A stretch of 6,584 bases of DNA, from positions 1 to 6,584 of the IMG/VR virus record IMGVR_UViG_2663762945_000004; one strand, 5' to 3'. Position 1 is the stretch's first letter. Every line of letters begins with the position of its first letter. A program made the position numbers and the translations under genes. The notes beneath the pieces were generated by a model. The model saw only the letters and a list, made by a program, of their open reading frames with translations, did no database searches and had not been told where the DNA came from. Of the stretch, positions 1-6,584 are shown in pieces. The stretch is from a virus. Its lineage: Duplodnaviria > Heunggongvirae > Uroviricota > Caudoviricetes.

Positions 1-510
1 ATGCAGCTTAAGCTCCGGATACATAGCGTTAACTTCTGGCATTTTCATCAACGCTTCAACGATATGGCCGTCGAATGTTGCCATGTCTTCCTGCAACAAT
101 TCCTGTGCGCTAATCACCATATCAACAGTGATGTTTTCACATGTGTCGAACTTAACCATGACAGCGTTCTGTACTTCAGGGGCTAGGTTGTCAAAAGTGA
201 CGTTCATCGGATCTGATTCAGTCTCAACCGGGACAAAGGAAGCTGACTCCTCATCCCAGCGGTTTTCCTGCATATATTCAGCATCCCAGGAATCGAGGGC
301 AGGGCGGGGTATACCGGGTTTATCCTCGCAAACAAGAAATTTATAAGCGCAGTCCTGAGCAGCCGGATATTGCTCCAGGAATTGCCAGGTAAATTTGGCA
401 CGGGCGCGGCGTTCGTCGCCAGCTTCAATGGCAGTGGCTACAGCGACTGCACCTTCTTCCTTTATTGCCTGTTCGTCCGGAATAGCGGCGCAAATAAAGA
501 CTTTACTCAT
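1..510 (-). CDS. Hypothetical phage early-left protein, 3'-truncated by the window start (170 codons, no stop in window)
   Basis: Hand translation of the minus strand from ATG at 510-508 (GAGGT about 9 nt upstream) gives an uninterrupted frame to position 1: MSKVFICAAIPDEQAIKEEG...NAMYPELKLH. Absent from the ORF track because it has no stop in the window; the plus-strand ORFs 1..186 and 83..346 are its antisense shadows. No family recognised. Confidence 0.55.
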   Translation of the reverse strand, partial: MSKVFICAAIPDEQAIKEEGAVAVATAIEAGDERRARAKFTWQFLEQYPAAQDCAYKFLVCEDKPGIPRPALDSWDAEYMQENRWDEESASFVPVETESDPMNVTFDNLAPEVQNAVMVKFDTCENITVDMVISAQELLQEDMATFDGHIVEALMKMPEVNAMYPELKLH

Positions 511-589
511 GTTGTTTTAACCTCATTACAGATTTAAGGGTGAACAAATCCCTGCCATTGCTGGCATATAAAATGAAACCGGATATTAA

Positions 590-802
590 TTACGGCGCTG
601 TTTTAAGTCCTGCCGGGATTTCGTTATTATCCATGTGAATAACTTTATCGACCGGATAACAGTTGCCGGGAATTTTCTGTTCCGCTGCGGCAGCCGTGCA
701 TTCTTTCATTGAACCGTAAATGTCAATAACCAGATTAACAGGCTCGCCAGTATTAAGATAAACTGTCAGAGCGAGTGCAAATGCTGTATTCACTGCCAGC
801 AT
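590..802 (-). CDS. Small hypothetical protein (about 70 aa from internal Met; ORF extends to 847)
   Basis: Minus-strand ORF with stop at 590. Hydrophobic N-terminal stretch (MLAVNTAFALALTVYL) from the ATG at 802. Neither candidate start (847 or 802) has a well-spaced Shine-Dalgarno. Start at 802 would overlap the upstream ORF by 13 nt. Confidence 0.25.
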   Translation of the reverse strand: MLAVNTAFALALTVYLNTGEPVNLVIDIYGSMKECTAAAAEQKIPGNCYPVDKVIHMDNNEIPAGLKTAP

Positions 803-978
803 CCTTTTTGCATCAGACGTAAACGGGCCAGCATTGAAACAATGCATATTTGATTTAATAGCTCCCGTTCGTGTTTTCTCTTATTAATAGCATCTTCAGT
901 AAATACAGGGTTACTGATTCTGACACCAATTTCAAAGCAACCTTCAGACGTATTAACGTTTGGTAATAACGTTTCCAT
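790..978 (-). CDS. Small hypothetical protein (62 aa)
   Basis: ATG at 978 preceded by GAGGA with 7-nt spacing; the SD overlaps the TGA stop of the upstream Rha-family gene (989-991), suggesting co-transcription and coupling. No family recognised. Confidence 0.4.
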   Translation of the reverse strand: METLLPNVNTSEGCFEIGVRISNPVFTEDAINKRKHERELLNQICIVSMLARLRLMQKGCWQ

Positions 979-988
979 TATCGCGTCC

Positions 989-1546
989 TCAGCAATGAAT
1001 TTTGAGTAATTGCTCCACAGTCATATTTTTAATTGAGTTCCGGTTAACAAGAGTCCATCCCTGTTTTTCCAGATAAAACCGGAAAGTCTCCAGGGTACAG
1101 ACGAGAGCGCCATCAGGAACGGTTTCGGTGAATCTGATGTTGCCGCGTTCGTCGAAGTGAACAACCAGAGTGCGGCCATCGCCTGAAATTATTTTGTCAG
1201 TGGGTGGGGTGTTATTCTGGCACAGCTCGGCCTCCATGCGATCGAACTCAGCAATGTAGGCTTCTTTAAATGCAGCGGCTTTTTTGCCAGTGAATCCCAT
1301 CACCAGGAAAACGAAGCCGTTTTTGGTGATTTGGTACATTGGGAGTTTGCGTCCGGTTGAGTCGGTGTATTTGCTCGACACAAAATTGTGCTCAGTGAAT
1401 TTTGCTGAACAGTCCAGATTGCGAATTTTATCCAACACTCGTTCGTGGCGTTTGCCAAAGAACTCGGCGATCGCAACAGACGTAGTGACAGCGCGACCAT
1501 TTTCGATGGTTACGTCAGGGTGAGAAAGGGTAAGGGTAGTAGCCAT
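989..1546 (-). CDS. Rha-family phage regulatory protein (pRha domain), possible antirepressor-type regulator
   Basis: Translation from ATG at 1546 (GGAGG SD 7 nt upstream) gives MATTLTLSHPDVTIENGRAVTTSVAIAEFFGKRHERVLDKIRNLDCSAKFTEHNFVSSKYTDSTGRKLPMYQITKNGFVFLVMGF..., which I recognise as an N-terminal Phage_pRha-type domain. The track ORF continues in frame upstream to an ATG at 1843 (AGGTGAG SD), so the true start is ambiguous. I prefer 1546 because the pRha domain is normally N-terminal and the upstream extension contains a terminator-like hairpin. Confidence 0.7.
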   Translation of the reverse strand: MATTLTLSHPDVTIENGRAVTTSVAIAEFFGKRHERVLDKIRNLDCSAKFTEHNFVSSKYTDSTGRKLPMYQITKNGFVFLVMGFTGKKAAAFKEAYIAEFDRMEAELCQNNTPPTDKIISGDGRTLVVHFDERGNIRFTETVPDGALVCTLETFRFYLEKQGWTLVNRNSIKNMTVEQLLKIHC

Positions 1547-1715
1547 GATGGCAGCCTCCGCGATGAATTTGATTAACTCACCACCGAGGTTTTCCACGAC
1601 CATAAGGGTGGTGAGACGTACAGGGGTGGAAATACCGGTCATCACGGAACCCGGCCAGCCTTGCGGCAGCCCTGCACGCCCCACCATAATGCGAATGTGG
1701 CTGTGCTTAACGCAT

Positions 1716-1738
1716 AAAAAAACCGCCTGAGCGCGGTT
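1716..1738 (-). terminator. Putative intrinsic terminator on the minus strand (hairpin plus U-tract)
   Basis: Plus strand reads aaaaaaaccgcctgagcgcggtt. On the minus-strand transcript this is a stem AACCGC / GCGGUU (4 GC + 2 AU pairs) with a 6-nt loop, followed by a run of 7 U. The stem is short, so strength is uncertain. It lies about 170 nt upstream of the Rha start at 1546. Confidence 0.4.
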
Positions 1739-1865
1739 ATGCGCCGTGAATGATTTCGGGTTTCCACGCCCGGCACCCGTTTTATAAGGTGCAGGCGAAC
1801 TATAATTCCACCCGTTCTGGTTTTCAATAGCTACATTCAACATTTTCTCTCACCTTTCATCACCG

Positions 1866-2021
1866 AAGTGAATTTTGTGATGCGGTGCCTGGTGCCTCCA
1901 GGTGACGTTAACCAGTTAACAATTAACGCCGGATACAGAGAACCCACCCATAACACACTGTTTTTGGTTTTAACTGTTCCGCGTGCGCTTAGCCGCATTC
2001 ACCGCATCACAAAATTCACTT
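1866..2021. repeat. Perfect 22-bp inverted repeat (arms 1866-1887 and 2000-2021) flanking a 112-bp spacer
   Basis: Left arm aagtgaattttgtgatgcggtg is the exact reverse complement of right arm caccgcatcacaaaattcactt. The spacer contains a small hairpin (cctgg tgcct ccagg, 1888-1902) and two GTTAAC palindromes. No convincing ORF overlaps it. Confidence 0.85.
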
Positions 2022-2383
2022 TAAAAAGGGCGGCAGAGCAGTCACGGAGTAAAACTGATACCGCCAAACGTCACCAGAAAATTGATAACAGAGGGCGTTG
2101 CAGCGGAGTTGTCACTTAAGCGTATGGTCAACCTGACAACCCGGCGTCCTCAACGGGGGAAGGAATAACCCCGCCATACTTACCGCCGCGCCATTTCGCG
2201 GATTGCCACAACCGGAAGCGCACGGTCGAATTAAATTTAACGACAAAGTACAGAGAGACGAGCTTCTCCGTGCGTTTTCGTGTTATGCCCTGACTTTTCA
2301 GGGATATATCCTTTTCAGTAAACTGTCAGTGCCGGATTCTTATCCGTGTCCGGCGCACGCACTCTACCTCACCTGTGAATAAA

Positions 2384-2758
2384 TTAATGATTAATTGATA
2401 TTTTGTTGTTTGATTCAACTTTCCCATCGGATGTGTGATGCTTTAAATCACAGGAATTAATACTGCTTGCTGTAAAATGATTTTCAAGGGGAGCTATTCG
2501 AATCCCTTTCTTTTTCATTAACAAGCCAAATCCTTTATTAATGATGTCCATTAATTCCAGAAAGTATTTTTCATGTAAATCCTGGTTATCAGAGAGCTGC
2601 TTCTCTTCGTACAGCCCGATAAAGGCTCGGCGTACGTTACCGGATATATTGTCGATGGTTTCTTTTTCTACGGTACTCAGGTCAAGAGTCGCCAGTTGAG
2701 AGCGAACCACATTCGATGCCATTTCCTGGAATGGTACTGGTAAATCTTTAAATTCCAT
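2384..2758 (-). CDS. Hypothetical protein (124 aa from Met at 2758; ORF extends to 2770), unknown function
   Basis: ATG at 2758 has a GAGGT SD with about 6-nt spacing. The alternative ATG at 2770 overlaps the upstream ORF stop by 1 nt (TGATG). Protein MEFKDLPVPFQEMASNVVRSQLATLDLSTVEKETIDNISGNVRRAFIGLYEEK..., no family recognised. The 3' two-thirds (about 2381-2580) is about 30 percent GC by hand count, far below the neighbours. Confidence 0.55.
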   Translation of the reverse strand: MEFKDLPVPFQEMASNVVRSQLATLDLSTVEKETIDNISGNVRRAFIGLYEEKQLSDNQDLHEKYFLELMDIINKGFGLLMKKKGIRIAPLENHFTASSINSCDLKHHTSDGKVESNNKISINH

Positions 2759-2769
2759 CGTCAACCTCA

Positions 2770-2922
2770 TCAGTCGGAGTTTCTTGCTAACCAGCGACGC
2801 GCGCCAGCTTCGGTTTTAAACGTTTTGCTTTTGGTATACGTCATCGCGGTGAACGTACCGTCCTGGTTGGGGAACACGCCACATACCAGAGATTCGCTGT
2901 TGCCAAGATCGATAGTATCCAT
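2770..2922 (-). CDS. Small protein (50 aa from Met at 2922; in-frame ORF extends to 3003), resembles small YdaF/DUF1391-like prophage proteins
   Basis: ATG at 2922 preceded by GAGGT at 4-nt spacing. An upstream in-frame ATG at 3003 also has a GAGG SD, so the start is ambiguous. Sequence MDTIDLGNSESLVCGVFPNQDGTFTAMTYTKSKTFKTEAGARRWLARNSD; the YdaF/DUF1391 resemblance is from memory and unverified. Confidence 0.5.
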   Translation of the reverse strand: MDTIDLGNSESLVCGVFPNQDGTFTAMTYTKSKTFKTEAGARRWLARNSD

Positions 2923-3098
2923 GCTGACCTCATTTCCCCTTAACGCCGGGGTAGCGGAACAAAAACCTGCTGCATAGTTATTAAAGTTGAACCCTGCCGT
3001 CATGTTCTTACGCCTCGGGCTGGCTACTTAACCCCTGACCACTGCCTGGTAACTCGAAGTATTGCCCTGCATTCTGTGGGGCGGGGTGGGTGGCAGGT

Positions 3099-3156
3099 AT
3101 ATAATGTACTTTGTGTTCATTGTTGTAAAGTACATTTAGTACATTTTGTGTGTAAA
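3099..3156 (-). promoter_or_regulatory. Putative leftward early promoter with operator-like repeats (pL/oL analogue)
   Basis: Three copies of the 7-mer ATGTACT or its reverse complement at 3104-3110 (forward), 3129-3135 and 3138-3144 (reverse). A candidate minus-strand sigma70 promoter overlaps them: -35 TTTACA (plus 3129-3124), 17-bp spacer, -10 CATTAT (plus 3106-3101). A plus-strand TATAAT also occurs at 3100-3105. Confidence 0.35.
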
Positions 3157-3219
3157 AAAATGAGATGGGATAAAGTGAAGCACAAACCCGGAGGAAGGCG
3201 CTACCGGATTTATGCTGGT

Positions 3220-3639
3220 TTAAGAGGCTTTTTGTTTTTTCTTTCGTGCTAACTCTTCGTAAATTGCATTGTACTTCTGTTTTTTCTCTTCAAGAGTTTT
3301 TAAAAGTTCATCTGTCTCACTGTCAGGGAGCTCGTCCAGAAGGTCAATGATGATTTTTTGTCTTGGATTTAACTCCTGATAGAAACGTACCTGTCCACTT
3401 TCTTCTGTATCCTCTCCCAAAAGATAGGTTGGTGTTGTTCCTATTAGTGTTGCTAATTCCCTTAATTTCTCCCGGCGAGGAATTGTTTCGCCATTAAACC
3501 ATTTGCTAACCGCTTTTGGTGTTAATTTCATTCGACGGGCAATTTCTGCCTGCCTTCCATGTTGTTCATAACCAGCGTTTTCACAGGCTAGCGCAAGCCT
3601 ACTGGCGAACTCTTTACGCGCTTTATCTTCATGAACCAT
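3220..3639 (-). CDS. Prophage repressor, HTH XRE family (CI-like, 139 aa), no LexA-like S24 peptidase domain
   Basis: ORF-track protein has an N-terminal XRE-type helix-turn-helix (QAEIARRMKLTPKAVSKWFNGETIPRREKLRELATLIGTTPTYLLGED) and a short charged, probably helical C-terminus (EELARKKKQKAS). It is divergent from a Cro-like gene. No SD precedes the ATG, consistent with a leaderless transcript as for lambda cI from pRM. Confidence 0.85.
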   Translation of the reverse strand: MVHEDKARKEFASRLALACENAGYEQHGRQAEIARRMKLTPKAVSKWFNGETIPRREKLRELATLIGTTPTYLLGEDTEESGQVRFYQELNPRQKIIIDLLDELPDSETDELLKTLEEKKQKYNAIYEELARKKKQKAS

Positions 3640-3718
3640 AAGTTCAATGATATTCGCTCTTGAATGTACTGTCAGTTCTGTTATAGCATGTACTCAAAGT
3701 TCACATTGTGAGGGTGAT
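3640..3718. promoter_or_regulatory. Divergent promoter/operator region (pRM-like leftward, pR-like rightward)
   Basis: Two forward ATGTACT copies at 3664-3670 and 3688-3694. Candidate pR: -35 TTGAAT (3660-3665), 16-bp spacer, -10 TATAGC (3682-3687). Candidate pRM on the minus strand: -35 CTGACA (plus 3675-3670), 17-bp spacer, -10 TATCAT (plus 3652-3647), ending about 7 nt before the repressor ATG. An 11-bp perfect palindrome TCACATTGTGA (3701-3711) sits just before the cro-like SD. Confidence 0.45.
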
Positions 3719-3973
3719 ATGAACCAGAAAACACTTGAAGATGTAATCAAAACTGTTCGCGTTGCTGTTGTGGCCGACGTTTGTGGTGTCAGCCAAAGAG
3801 CAATCTATAAATGGATGGATAACGGAAAATTGCCTCGCACAGAATATACCGGCGAAACAAATTACGCTGAAAAAATCGCTCTTGCATCAAACGGATTATT
3901 TTCTGCCGATGCAATTTTAACTATTGGCAGGAATAAAACTACTACGAAAAAGCTGATGGGAGTTGATTCATGA
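3719..3973 (+). CDS. Cro-like HTH regulator, YdaS family (84 aa)
   Basis: ATG at 3719 preceded by GAGGGTG. Protein MNQKTLEDVIKTVRVAVVADVCGVSQRAIYKWMDNGKLPRTEYTGETNYAEKIALASNGLFSADAILTIG... has the Cro/YdaS-type HTH pattern. Divergent from the repressor. Its TGA stop overlaps the next gene start (ATGA at 3970-3973). The track ORF starts upstream at 3647 but lacks an SD there. Confidence 0.8.
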   Translation: MNQKTLEDVIKTVRVAVVADVCGVSQRAIYKWMDNGKLPRTEYTGETNYAEKIALASNGLFSADAILTIGRNKTTTKKLMGVDS

Positions 3974-4395
3974 AAATCAAGCATGAACACATCCGCATGG
4001 CGATGAATGCCTGGGCGCATCCGGACGGCGAAAAAGTACCGGCTGCGAAAATTACCAAAGCGTATTTCGAGCTGGGAATGACGTTCCCGGAACTGTATGA
4101 CGACAGCCATCCGGAAGCCCTGGCTCGCAATACTCAGAAAATTTTCCGCTGGGTGGAGAAAGACACCCCTGATGCGGTTAAAAAAATTCAGGCGTTGTTA
4201 CCAGCTATCGAAAAAGCAATGCCACCTCTGCTGGTGGCCCGAATGCGCAGTCATAGCTCAGCCTATTTTCGGGAACTAGTGGAGACGCGGGAACGACTGG
4301 TGAGAGACGCTGATGATTTTGTCGCAGTGGCGATCGCTGGTTTCAACCAGATGAATCGTGGTGGCCCTGCAGGAAATATTGTGGCTGTGCATTGA
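3970..4395 (+). CDS. ydaT: YdaT-family protein (CII-like regulator; family historically annotated as a putative toxin), 141 aa
   Basis: Protein begins MKIKHEHIRMAMNAWAHPDGEKVPAAKITKAYFELGMTFPELYDDSHPEALARNTQKIFRWVEKD..., which I recognise as the YdaT family of Rac-like prophages. Start overlaps the upstream stop by 4 nt, indicating translational coupling. Confidence 0.78.
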   Translation: MKIKHEHIRMAMNAWAHPDGEKVPAAKITKAYFELGMTFPELYDDSHPEALARNTQKIFRWVEKDTPDAVKKIQALLPAIEKAMPPLLVARMRSHSSAYFRELVETRERLVRDADDFVAVAIAGFNQMNRGGPAGNIVAVH

Positions 4396-4466
4396 CTCGC
4401 AATATTCATACCGGATCGCTTCCGGCAATTTGTGAGTAAAAAGATTCGGTATCAAAAGAGGTGAGT

Positions 4467-5228
4467 ATGGCTAACGCCTGGCTCAGATTATGGCATGACA
4501 TGCCAAATGACCCTAAGTGGCGAACAATTGCCAGGGTGTCAGGGCAGCCAATTGCAACAGTGATGGCAGTGTATATCCACCTCCTGGTGAGCGCGTCACG
4601 AAATGTCACGCGAGGTCACATTGAGGTCACGACAGAAGATTTGGCAAGTGCGCTCGACGTGACAGAAGAGGTAATTGATTCAATTTTGCAGACGATGCAG
4701 GGGCGGGTACTTGATGGTGATTTAATCACTGGATGGGAAAAACGCCAGGTGCTTAAAGAGGACAACGGCAATATTTCGCAAACCGCAAAATCTCCTGCAG
4801 AGCGCAAGAGGGCGCAGCGAGAGAGGGAAAGAAAGCGGGAACAAAATGGCGATTGTCACGGCGCGTCACGAAATGTCACGCATATGTCACGACGAGTCAC
4901 GACAGATAAAGATACAGATAAAGATACAGATCAAGAAGATCAAAACACTATGGTCCATGGCGTAAAAAACGCCACGAACCAGGCAGGGGATGTTCAGACC
5001 GTCAATCTTGGTCAGCCAGCAGGCACGACACCGGAAGCCGATTCAGCGTATGCGCTGAAAGCCGATTCGGGCGCTGTGCAGCAGGTGATGACCGCAAGGC
5101 CGGAGCAATCACACCAACTGCAGCAGCCCGAAGCCGATTCCGCCATTCAGCGGGAAGCCGATCGGGTAGTCCCGGAAAACACCGGGCAGTCTGTGGGACG
5201 AGTGGATTACCGGAACTCGGGCTGGTGA
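4467..5228 (+). CDS. Replication initiator-like protein (lambda O analogue) with iteron arrays inside its coding sequence
   Basis: ATG at 4467 with AGAGGTG upstream (the track starts at GTG 4461). N-terminus MANAWLRLWHDMPNDPKWRTIARVSGQPIATVMAVYIHLLVSASRN... followed by a winged-helix-like segment (TEDLASALDVTEEVIDSILQTMQGRVL). An acidic TDKDTDKDTDQEDQ linker is encoded by a tandem repeat. Two GTCAC iteron arrays lie inside the gene, as the lambda origin lies inside O. The family name is not verified. Confidence 0.65.
   Translation: MANAWLRLWHDMPNDPKWRTIARVSGQPIATVMAVYIHLLVSASRNVTRGHIEVTTEDLASALDVTEEVIDSILQTMQGRVLDGDLITGWEKRQVLKEDNGNISQTAKSPAERKRAQRERERKREQNGDCHGASRNVTHMSRRVTTDKDTDKDTDQEDQNTMVHGVKNATNQAGDVQTVNLGQPAGTTPEADSAYALKADSGAVQQVMTARPEQSHQLQQPEADSAIQREADRVVPENTGQSVGRVDYRNSGW
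4592..4636. repeat. Iteron array 1: four GTCAC(G) direct repeats at 10-11-bp spacing
   Basis: GTCAC begins at 4596, 4606, 4616 and 4627. The units are gtcacgaaat, gtcacgcgag, gtcacattgag and gtcacgacag. Confidence 0.6.
4855..4905. repeat. Iteron array 2: five GTCAC(G) direct repeats at 10-11-bp spacing (candidate replication origin core)
   Basis: GTCAC begins at 4855, 4865, 4875, 4886 and 4896. A 21-bp segment GCGCGTCACGAAATGTCACGC is shared exactly with array 1 (4592-4612 and 4861-4881). The array is immediately followed by an AT-rich tandem repeat. Confidence 0.6.
4902..4940. repeat. Tandem 12-bp repeat (acagataaagat twice, then a degenerate third copy), AT-rich, adjacent to iteron array 2
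   Basis: acagataaagat at 4902-4913 and 4914-4925, then acagatcaagaagat. It encodes the TDKDTDKDTDQEDQ linker and is placed like the AT-rich unwinding region next to the lambda ori iterons. Confidence 0.6.
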
Positions 5229-6229
5229 TCGTTAAGCCGGGCCGTGAATCCATGCCGGTATTCCACAATACCCGGGTACTGGTGGAGCCGGAACCGAAAA
5301 GCATGCGTAATCTGCCGTCCGGGGTCGTTCCTGCCGTTCGCCAGCCGCTGGCGGAGGATAAATCATTACTGCCATTTTTCAGCGACGAACGAGTGATTCG
5401 TGCTGCTGGTGGCGCTGGCGCATTGTCTGACTGGTTACTGCGCCATGTTAAATCCTGCCAGTGGCCACACGGCGATTATCACCACAGTGAAACCGTCATT
5501 CACCGTTATGGTACCGGCGCAATGGTGTTGTGCTGGCACTGCGACAACCAGCTGCGCGACCAGACCTCCGAATCACTCGGGCAACTTGCTCACCAAAACC
5601 TGTCTGCATGGATGATTGACGTCATACGCCATGCAATGAATGGCTCGCAGGAACGGGAATTATCGCTGGCTGAATTATCCTGGTGGGCGGTCCGCAATCA
5701 GGTGGCGGACGCGCTACCGGAAGCGGTATTACGTCGTTCGCTGGGGTTGCGTGCGGAAAAAATCCGCTCAATGTACCGTGAAAGCGACATCGTACCGGGA
5801 GAGCAGACCGCCACCAGCATACTGAAACAGCGCACAAAAAATCTTGCGCCGCTGCCTCACGCCCACCAGCAACAGAACCCACCACAGGAAAAGACGGTGG
5901 TCAGCATTGCCGTTGATCCTGAGTCTCCGGAATCTTTCATGAAACGACCTAAACGTCGCCGCTGGGTTAACGAGAAATACACACGCTGGGTGAAGACACA
6001 GCCGTGTGCGTGTTGTGGTAAGCCAGCCGACGATCCCCATCACCTGATTGGTCATGGTCAGGGCGGAATGGGGACAAAATCTCACGATATTTTCACGCTA
6101 CCGCTGTGTCGGGAGCATCACAACGAGCTTCATGCGGATCCTCTGGCGTTCGAAGAAAAGCATGGTTCTCAGGTTGATTTAATTTTTCGTTTTCTTGATC
6201 ACGCCTTTGCAACTGGCGTGCTTGGGTAA
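5225..6229 (+). CDS. DUF968-family prophage protein with a C-terminal Cys/His HNH-like motif (putative nuclease or zinc-binding)
   Basis: The track ORF starts at GTG 5225, overlapping the upstream TGA (GTGA); an alternative ATG is at 5252, and neither has a clear SD. The C-terminus CACCGKPADDPHHLIGHGQGGMGTKSHDIFTLPLCREHHNELH matches the motif I associate with DUF968 (YdfU-like) proteins. Family assignment is from memory. Confidence 0.7.
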   Translation: MIVKPGRESMPVFHNTRVLVEPEPKSMRNLPSGVVPAVRQPLAEDKSLLPFFSDERVIRAAGGAGALSDWLLRHVKSCQWPHGDYHHSETVIHRYGTGAMVLCWHCDNQLRDQTSESLGQLAHQNLSAWMIDVIRHAMNGSQERELSLAELSWWAVRNQVADALPEAVLRRSLGLRAEKIRSMYRESDIVPGEQTATSILKQRTKNLAPLPHAHQQQNPPQEKTVVSIAVDPESPESFMKRPKRRRWVNEKYTRWVKTQPCACCGKPADDPHHLIGHGQGGMGTKSHDIFTLPLCREHHNELHADPLAFEEKHGSQVDLIFRFLDHAFATGVLG

Positions 6230-6241
6230 AAGAGGTGACTG

Positions 6242-6584
6242 ATGATCATAGATTTGGTTTTACCTTACCCGCCGACGGTGAACACTTACTGGCGACGCCG
6301 TGGCAGCACATATTTTATCTCGGAGGAGGGAAAGCGTTATCGCCGGGCTGTGGCGCTTATTGTTCGCCAGCAGCGGCTGAAATTAAGCCTGTCCGGAAGG
6401 CTGGCGATAAAGGTGATTGCAGAGCCACCGGATAAGCGTCGTCGAGACCTGGACAATATCCTGAAAGCACCGCTGGATGCGCTGACGCATGCGGGAGTGT
6501 TAATGGACGATGAGCAGTTTGATGAAATCAATATCGTTCGTGGTCAGCCAGTATCTGGTGGACGTATGGGGGTGAAGATTTACC
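6242..6584 (+). CDS. rusA: Crossover junction endodeoxyribonuclease RusA (Holliday junction resolvase), 3'-truncated by the window end
   Basis: Hand translation from ATG 6242 (AGAGGTG SD 4 nt upstream): MIIDLVLPYPPTVNTYWRRRGSTYFISEEGKRYRRAVALIVRQQRLKLSLSGRLAIKVIAEPPDKRRRDLDNILKAPLDALTHAGVLMDDEQFDEINIVRGQPVSGGRMGVKIY. This has the RusA motifs (PPSxNxYxR, DxRRRDxDN, DD). It is missing from the ORF track because there is no stop in the window; track ORF 6235..6435 is in the wrong frame. Confidence 0.85.
   Translation, partial: MIIDLVLPYPPTVNTYWRRRGSTYFISEEGKRYRRAVALIVRQQRLKLSLSGRLAIKVIAEPPDKRRRDLDNILKAPLDALTHAGVLMDDEQFDEINIVRGQPVSGGRMGVKIY

Follow-up and report, generated by a model that had tools for sequence, protein, structure and literature searches.

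A Rha-family antirepressor gene of a lambdoid prophage is probably controlled by an IsrK/C4-type RNA leader

In the immI operons of phages P1 and P7 (c4, icd, ant1/ant2), the C4 antisense RNA comes from the same transcript as its targets, with the a1/b1 pair lying upstream and the a2/b2 pair downstream of it; b2 sits on the ribosome-binding site (RBS) of the first gene and the final output of the operon is an antirepressor. The C4 RNA of P1 and its counterpart in P4, the CI RNA, are processed by RNase P from the operon transcript, are stable and repress in trans. We know of no description in P1 of a terminator after a1/b1 that would yield a discrete small RNA (sRNA). Here we analyze the leader of a Rha-family, antirepressor-type gene on the minus strand of a 6,584-nucleotide (nt) stretch of tailed-phage DNA (IMG/VR record IMGVR_UViG_2663762945_000004, positions 1 to 6,584; hereafter the window). 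We consider it likely that an RNA gate of the P4, P1 and Gifsy-1 kind, built from IsrK and C4 RNAs, controls translation of this gene, that a hairpin within the leader is the leaky terminator of IsrK and that a long open reading frame (ORF) spanning the leader acts as a bypass resembling the P4 gene eta.

Described relatives and the layout of the locus

The Gifsy-1 IsrK locus was described by Hershko-Shalev et al. 2016 (PMC4825925). The isrK promoter also drives the downstream genes there, only part of the transcripts pass the IsrK terminator, and the long transcript is translationally silent; the short IsrK RNA works in trans to switch on orf45 translation, to which translation of the antirepressor AnrP is coupled, and raised anrP translation more than 100-fold (PMC4825925). 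The stable RNA STnc1160, a homologue of C4, is processed from the read-through transcript (PMC4825925).

For the satellite P4, the passages of PMC10111431 that deal with its immunity region place the CI RNA and seqA within gene eta and a constitutive promoter inside eta; Kil is an internally initiated, truncated Eta, and full-length Eta is made only from the upstream late promoter. The same passages cite Forti et al. 1999 for the findings that Eta translation prevents termination and that a Rho-dependent terminator lies downstream. The P4 immunity factor from the CI region is reported to be an RNA (in those passages of PMC10111431 and in PMC4825925, citing the primary P4 literature). Since CI and seqA have already been placed inside Bro-network genes in the literature, and since both RNAs of the window score above their Rfam gathering thresholds, the system belongs to a known kind and not to a new one.

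The leader contains the following elements (window positions):

989–1843, minus: long ORF of 284 codons, an Eta-like extension joined to Rha, starting upstream of the internal promoter
1799–1827, minus: predicted sigma-70-like promoter, TTGAAA-17-TATAGT, 10/12 consensus matches, −10 box identical and aligned in P4
1805–1753, minus: candidate c4-a1b1 element, Rfam 28.7 bits, below the gathering threshold of 46.7
1716–1792, minus: IsrK/SeqA-type sRNA, RF01394, 65.4 bits, with compensatory stem changes
1792–1773, minus: hairpin 1 of the IsrK sRNA
1772–1757, minus: a1 hairpin of IsrK, with a1 GUGGAAA at 1767–1761
1753–1744, minus: b1 of IsrK, UCAUUCACGG, a copy of the C4 b′ target
1716–1738, minus: IsrK intrinsic terminator, stem-loop 1738–1721 and U7 tract 1722–1716, −9.2 kcal/mol
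1604–1691, minus: C4/CI-type antisense RNA, RF01695, 77.6 bits against a gathering threshold of 45, model positions 1–87 of 87
1685–1687, minus: AUG homologous to the first AUG of orf45, nt 106 of the transcript from the IsrK promoter, in frame with Rha and 47 codons upstream
1650–1639, minus: C4 b′ loop GUUCCGUGAUGA, pairing with b2 and b1
1632–1626, minus: C4 a′ UUUCCAC, pairing with a2 and a1
1591–1597, minus: a2 target GUGGAAA, complement of a′
1555–1566, minus: b2 target UCAUCGCGGAGG, complement of the C4 b′ loop, overlapping the Shine–Dalgarno (SD) sequence GGAGG at 1559–1555
989–1546, minus: Rha-family antirepressor-type gene from its internal start, 185 amino acids (aa), Phage_pRha PF09669 and TIGR02681

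The order of these elements, with the −10 box followed by a1/b1, the terminator with its U run, C4/CI, a2/b2 and the SD-ATG, is that of both P4 and Gifsy-1. As in the Gifsy-1 isrK–orf45(STnc1160)–anrP cassette, a promoter precedes a 77-nt IsrK with its terminator (leaky in Gifsy-1), a C4-like RNA and the SD-ATG of a Rha/antirepressor-type protein of ~185 aa, and the orf45 AUG, located at A107 in Gifsy-1 (PMC4825925), has kept its position in the transcript. In Gifsy-1, orf45 is read in a different frame from anrP and ends as AUGA on the anrP start, whereas the frame continues into Rha here and reaches back beyond the promoter on its upstream side. The cassette of Gifsy-1 belongs to the late region, where it comes after antQ; the one studied here is part of the early-left operon, with dicF on one side and dicB on the other, and the specificity sequences of the two differ.

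With P4, the locus shares the −10 box TATAGT, 21 identical nt at the RBS and start (GGAGGCTGCCATCATGGCTAC) and the first ~11 codons (MATTLTLSHPD here and MATTLTPSHPE in P4); window positions 1514–1559 (minus strand) and P4 kil (L082 900–945), which cover the RBS, the start and these codons, are 91% identical over 45 nt. Rha and Kil diverge immediately afterwards, which points to a recombination junction between cassette types within the coding sequence. Both elements have a long ORF whose start precedes the internal promoter and which shares its frame with the internal-start gene (the in-frame ATGs of P4 lie 133–149 codons upstream), both extensions match Pfam Phage_ASH, and the old P4 "cI protein" ORF matches this family over the CI RNA. 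Unlike in P4, the C-terminal portion consists of a Rha DNA-binding protein and not of the 65-aa, Icd-like Kil, the ~78 extra nt found between the P4 terminator and CI are absent, the a specificity is GUGGAAA instead of GUGAGAA, the b specificities differ as well, and the cassette is carried by a lambdoid prophage and not by a satellite. The P4 kil product matches, in its C-terminal part (L082 914–1111), the NCBIfam Icd-like cell-division inhibitor NF033153, which links P4 Kil with P1 Icd.

P1 immI has the same target layout and an antirepressor as output, and the window matches Rfam C4 together with the sub-threshold c4-a1b1. The locus differs from P1 immI in that no separate icd stands between C4 and the antirepressor, the first regulated start being that of Rha itself, and in that the P1 Ant protein is distinct from Rha.

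The IsrK and C4 RNAs and the internal rha start

The elements listed above, their complementarity and their covariation are observed at this locus and in its relatives, as is the conservation of the open frame that crosses them. The protein read from ATG 1546 scores above the cut-off of both Rha hidden Markov models (106.6 and 105.9 bits for PF09669 and TIGR02681, respectively) and matches PHROG anti-repressor families. A preliminary description of the sequence had placed a hairpin and U7 tract at 1716–1738, about 170 nt before the GGAGG-ATG at 1546, and we find them at these coordinates: on the minus strand, AACCGC-GCUCAG-GCGGUU followed by further U residues forms a 6-bp stem-loop, with the U7 tract 170 nt upstream of ATG 1546. 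Taken by itself the motif is not above chance, as a consensus terminator scan returned four sites in 2.8 kb against 3.4 expected from shuffled sequences. Its significance comes from the Rfam isrK match, from the conservation of the terminator and from compensatory changes in the stems.

An Rfam scan of the window matched isrK at 1792–1716 over the full model (positions 1–77 of 77; E value 1e-12; gathering threshold 50 bits). Because the match ends exactly at the U tract, we identify the hairpin as the IsrK terminator, in agreement with its earlier reading as a terminator in the Rha leader. A hairpin followed by T6–8 occurs at the equivalent position in all 60 distinct IsrK regions recovered (60/60), and 7 of the 15 stem pairs of IsrK have undergone compensatory changes. 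The RNA has the three hairpins of IsrK, of which the third is a Rho-independent terminator that carries a U tract, as well as a promoter of its own (by consensus match only) and a position upstream of a C4-like RNA and an antirepressor gene. The spacing of the predicted promoter, which lies within the extension ORF, puts the transcription start near 1792, that is, at position 1 of the isrK model. The separate promoter that had been considered between 1546 and 1706 did not materialize, since a scan of the minus strand found no promoter-like site in that interval.

Downstream of the terminator, the C4-type RNA, which had gone unnoticed in the preliminary description, carries a′ and b′ segments complementary both to the upstream pair a1/b1 and to the downstream pair a2/b2, and b2 covers the RBS of the first regulated gene. 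The predicted b′–b2 duplex has an energy of −19.3 kcal/mol, matched by only 2 of 500 shuffled targets. We assembled C4-core loci from IMG/VR and added loci encoding Rha relatives. Four variants of a′ occur, and in 99–100 of the 101 sequences the segment matches a1 and a2 as an exact complement. Partners of b′ were scored by duplex energy, because the unpaired loop ends and a G-U pair in the window make an exact-match test unsuitable. Among 19 b′ loop classes, the b2 of the same locus (the segment preceding the SD) is the best partner in 18, with a mean of −13.9 kcal/mol against −5.5 kcal/mol for foreign targets; the corresponding means for b1 (the middle segment of IsrK) are −11.2 and −4.4 kcal/mol. 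This three-way covariation of b′, b1 and b2 is the strongest evidence that ATG 1546 is a genuine antisense-controlled start and that IsrK carries mimics of the C4 targets, as judged from the aligned sequences. The 263-nt leader as a whole folds with z = −3.7 relative to shuffles.

The closing stem of C4 has a 3′ strand, CCACC (1604–1612, minus strand), that can pair alternatively with a downstream GGUGG (1581–1587, minus strand). This alternative presents a2 in a hairpin loop, shows compensatory changes across loci and may correspond to structures A and B, the alternative folds of Gifsy-1. A hairpin sequestering the SD (CCUC...GGAGG), seen in the single-sequence fold of the window, was not recovered as conserved; the a2-presenting hairpin is conserved instead. 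Some viral contigs hold two isrK–C4 leader copies each within ~1.5 kb (L016, 1177–1565 and 2707–3087; L041, 763–1046 and 1177–1566), which suggests tandem cassettes.

From these data we propose how the leader would operate. Transcription from the promoter at 1827–1799 would start near 1792, and the hairpin and U7 tract would stop most transcripts, leaving a 77-nt RNA that bears a1 and b1. Read-through, as shown in Gifsy-1, would produce transcripts containing the C4-type RNA (1691–1604), which would probably be processed to a stable antisense RNA. Pairing of b′ with b2 across the SD of ATG 1546, and of a′ with a2, would block Rha translation, and the block would probably cause Rho-dependent polarity on rha and the downstream dicB. 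Carrying the same targets, IsrK would compete for C4 as a decoy, or it would remodel the long transcript as in Gifsy-1; either action would switch translation on. Leaky termination, translational control and the prevention of termination by Eta translation were established in the homologues Gifsy-1 and P4, and by analogy would hold for this leader. The expectation of a regulated gate ahead of an antirepressor-type gene is thus borne out by the IsrK and C4 elements and by the Rha and PHROG matches, whereas protein antitermination at the hairpin, for which one of the earlier suggestions left room, gives way to C4-type antisense control of the SD of ATG 1546 as the main step.

Several observations weigh against this proposal. 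The 77-nt RNA alone folds no better than shuffled sequences (z = −1.2) and its terminator is short (6 bp, −9.2 kcal/mol). Within the window alone, the b′–b1 and a′–a2 duplexes are marginal, with 67/500 and 60/500 shuffled targets as good, and their support comes from covariation across loci, where the compared loci are related and the counts do not represent independent events. In addition, it is uncertain which of the two published mechanisms applies, since the upstream ORF of Gifsy-1 does not share the anrP frame and acts through translational coupling.

A strict version of the Gifsy-1 mechanism would have read-through transcripts translated from AUG 1687 only when short IsrK opens their structure in trans, with C4 serving mainly as a structural element in cis and not as a trans repressor; starting in frame at AUG 1687, translation would yield a Rha isoform of 232 aa. 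The near-identical position of this AUG (nt 106 against A107 in orf45; PMC4825925), the conserved alternative pairings of the C4 3′ strand and the more than 100-fold effect of IsrK on anrP speak for it. We nevertheless find it unlikely, as AUG 1687 has no SD and the strongest and best covarying interaction is that of the C4 loop with the SD of ATG 1546, which implies that the internal start is controlled directly, in the way reported for P4 kil. It is a sub-model of the C4-gate proposal and does not contradict it.

The in-frame extension and its evolution

The frame of rha stays open back to ATG 1843, as had been noted, and encodes 284 aa; the SD of this start (GGUGAGAG), previously called good, is only moderate, with a predicted anti-SD duplex of −4.6 kcal/mol against −9.5 kcal/mol for the GGAGG of ATG 1546. 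The caution that a long isoform should be kept in mind was well placed, as the open frame is positively conserved. Of 98 distinct loci, 88 lack stops in the gene frame over the 300 nt upstream of the gene, and only 1 and 7 lack them in the other two frames; the mean numbers of stops per frame are 0.6 for the gene frame, 5.0 and 2.7. In seven of the 10 loci whose gene frame is closed, a different frame is open, as it is in Gifsy-1. The distance from the AUG at the 5′ end of C4 to the gene ATG is 135, 138 or 141 nt, all multiples of three, in 74/82 loci, and the frame is retained in 71/76 close relatives.

The sequence within this frame does not evolve as protein. Among 36 Rha-type relatives, substitutions in the extension are spread over codon positions 1, 2 and 3 as 49/58/59 (p = 0.58), whereas those in the Rha body are distributed as 92/65/208 (p = 2.5e-21). 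Aligning homologues had been proposed as a way to decide between a conserved N-terminal extension and a terminator. The alignment shows the extension kept open, with no codon periodicity in its substitutions, and the terminator and RNA structures are conserved along with it. The alternative was a false one, since both features coexist, as they do in P4 eta/kil according to the passages on that locus in PMC10111431. On the sequence evidence, the extension is maintained as a translatable frame while its sequence evolves as RNA, a combination that fits the eta/kil precedent, in which translation of the region matters and not a folded Ash domain.

The nested arrangement of eta and kil is also found here: ATG 1843 lies upstream of the −35 element at 1827, the frame is open down to ATG 1546, and its continuity across IsrK, the terminator and C4 has been kept in evolution. 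As ATG 1843 precedes the internal promoter, it is usable only on transcripts from the upstream operon. The ORF starting there would be the counterpart of P4 eta, probably translated only from early-left operon transcripts that run through dicF, and with ribosomes passing across IsrK, the terminator and C4, the RNA gate would no longer affect rha expression.

We tentatively extend this to the Ash "domain" in general, a generalization that may well prove wrong: it could be an RNA-immunity cassette kept translatable, in which ribosomes from ATG 1843 override the terminator and the antisense targets and yield an extended Rha when the early-left operon is derepressed, so that the antirepressor and dicB would be expressed by two routes, one sensitive and one insensitive to the RNA gate. 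Were this correct, annotations such as "Rha/Ash two-domain protein" and "ash family protein" would misread a regulatory RNA as a protein.

Translational coupling of ATG 1843 to a 53-aa ORF at 1998–1837, whose stop overlaps the ATG (ATGTTGA), was considered and rejected: a 95%-identical relative carries −2 and +1 indels in it and the region is a strongly structured RNA, so this ORF is probably not a gene.

The databases take a different view of the extension, according to which the region is coding sequence for a two-domain, 284-aa Ash–Rha protein and the hairpin is incidental, with no role in termination. RefSeq and the Prokaryotic Genome Annotation Pipeline (PGAP) annotate the 284-aa form as a Rha family protein (WP_000935598.1), residues 14–108 match Pfam Phage_ASH PF10554 (55.7 bits against a gathering threshold of 26; E value 7.7e-15), PHROG 995 spans all 284 residues and the frame is conserved. 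A search with the 99-aa extension returned mainly partial proteins, and many of its NCBI homologues bear the name "ash family protein". Yet two Rfam families above their gathering thresholds fill this "domain", the codon periodicity of the Rha body is missing from it, and its variable "residues" coincide in the protein alignment with the a and b specificity segments of the RNAs, which covary as base pairs. A conserved promoter and a U-run terminator also lie inside the ORF, the strong SD belongs to the internal ATG, where it is the target of the C4 loop, and the corresponding P4 immunity factor is reported as an RNA (PMC4825925 and the passages of PMC10111431 cited above). AlphaFold assigned residues 1–110 a predicted local distance difference test score (pLDDT) of 28–38 and no secondary structure, a result of little weight because the confidence of the model is low overall (mean pLDDT 45). 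In sum, Phage_ASH displays neither the codon-position bias of a folded domain nor, on this weaker evidence, a predicted fold, and we regard the two-domain protein as quite improbable.

What follows the N-terminal part varies among Rha, Kil-like and other C-terminal parts. A paper on Shiga toxin (Stx) phages states that the Ash domain has no assigned function (PMC8951638). RefSeq, Pfam PF10554, PHROG 995 and NCBI protein names treat the RNA leader as a protein domain, whereas its conserved and variable positions are, in our alignments, accounted for by RNA structure and by RNA–RNA specificity. The annotation of "Ash" proteins is a side benefit of the analysis.

The cassette in its prophage

The window corresponds to the immunity and early-left region of an E. 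coli/Shigella lambdoid prophage of the Qin/DicB type. Antirepressors of the Rha type trigger prophage induction, and the homologous Gifsy-1 switch decides induction and toxicity; an RNA gate upstream of the cell-division inhibitor DicB, whose gene starts 10 nt past the Rha stop, would bear on the induction of these prophages. The features surrounding the leader are as follows:

996–1868, minus: isrK–C4–rha cassette, 873 bp, defined by comparison with prophages that lack the module, between dicF with the structured leader and dicB
1877–1869 and 1004–996: direct repeat CAAAATTCA flanking the cassette
2028–2079, minus: full-length DicF sRNA, Rfam 76.7 bits (gathering threshold 48), early-left operon, upstream of the cassette
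2016–1874, minus: weak STnc100 match, Rfam 39.3 bits, below the gathering threshold of 47
3639–3220, minus: helix-turn-helix (HTH) repressor, divergent from the YdaS-like gene
3647–3973, plus: YdaS-like HTH gene
3970–4395: YdaT-like gene, following the YdaS-like gene
5225–6229: DUF968/HNH-like protein

The cassette contains the SD and ATG 1843, the promoter, IsrK, C4 and the Rha gene, and its bounds enclose exactly the long ORF plus its SD. Prophages without it read ...CACAAAATTCA|TTGTTGAGGACGCGATAATG(dicB), and the insertion point is the 3′ foot of a 22-bp stem that lies directly upstream of dicB in these prophages. That the hairpin is instead the operon-end terminator of the dicF unit, with Rha expressed from a promoter of its own downstream of it, is highly improbable: the hairpin does lie downstream of DicF and of a large structured element on the same strand, and such a promoter had been raised earlier, but the scan of the minus strand gave no promoter-like site for the interval 1546–1706, the hairpin moves with the cassette and not with dicF, being absent from cassette-free prophages, and the promoter and a1/b1 always stand at a fixed distance before it.

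The structured element upstream of the cassette (155 nt, 1866–2021, minus strand) has a 22-bp closing stem and a minimum free energy of −69.3 kcal/mol (z = −8.4). It is overlapped by the 53-aa ORF at 1998–1837, and in a relative PGAP annotates part of it as a DicB N-terminal pseudogene fragment. The window also encodes a DUF1391 protein, DicB and a DUF1482 protein; a scan of the window for transfer and transfer-messenger RNAs found none. Of 5,426 complete E. coli genomes, 322 match at least 80% of the 1,451-nt stretch with the cassette (950–2400), and related leader sequences occur in many Stx-converting phages.

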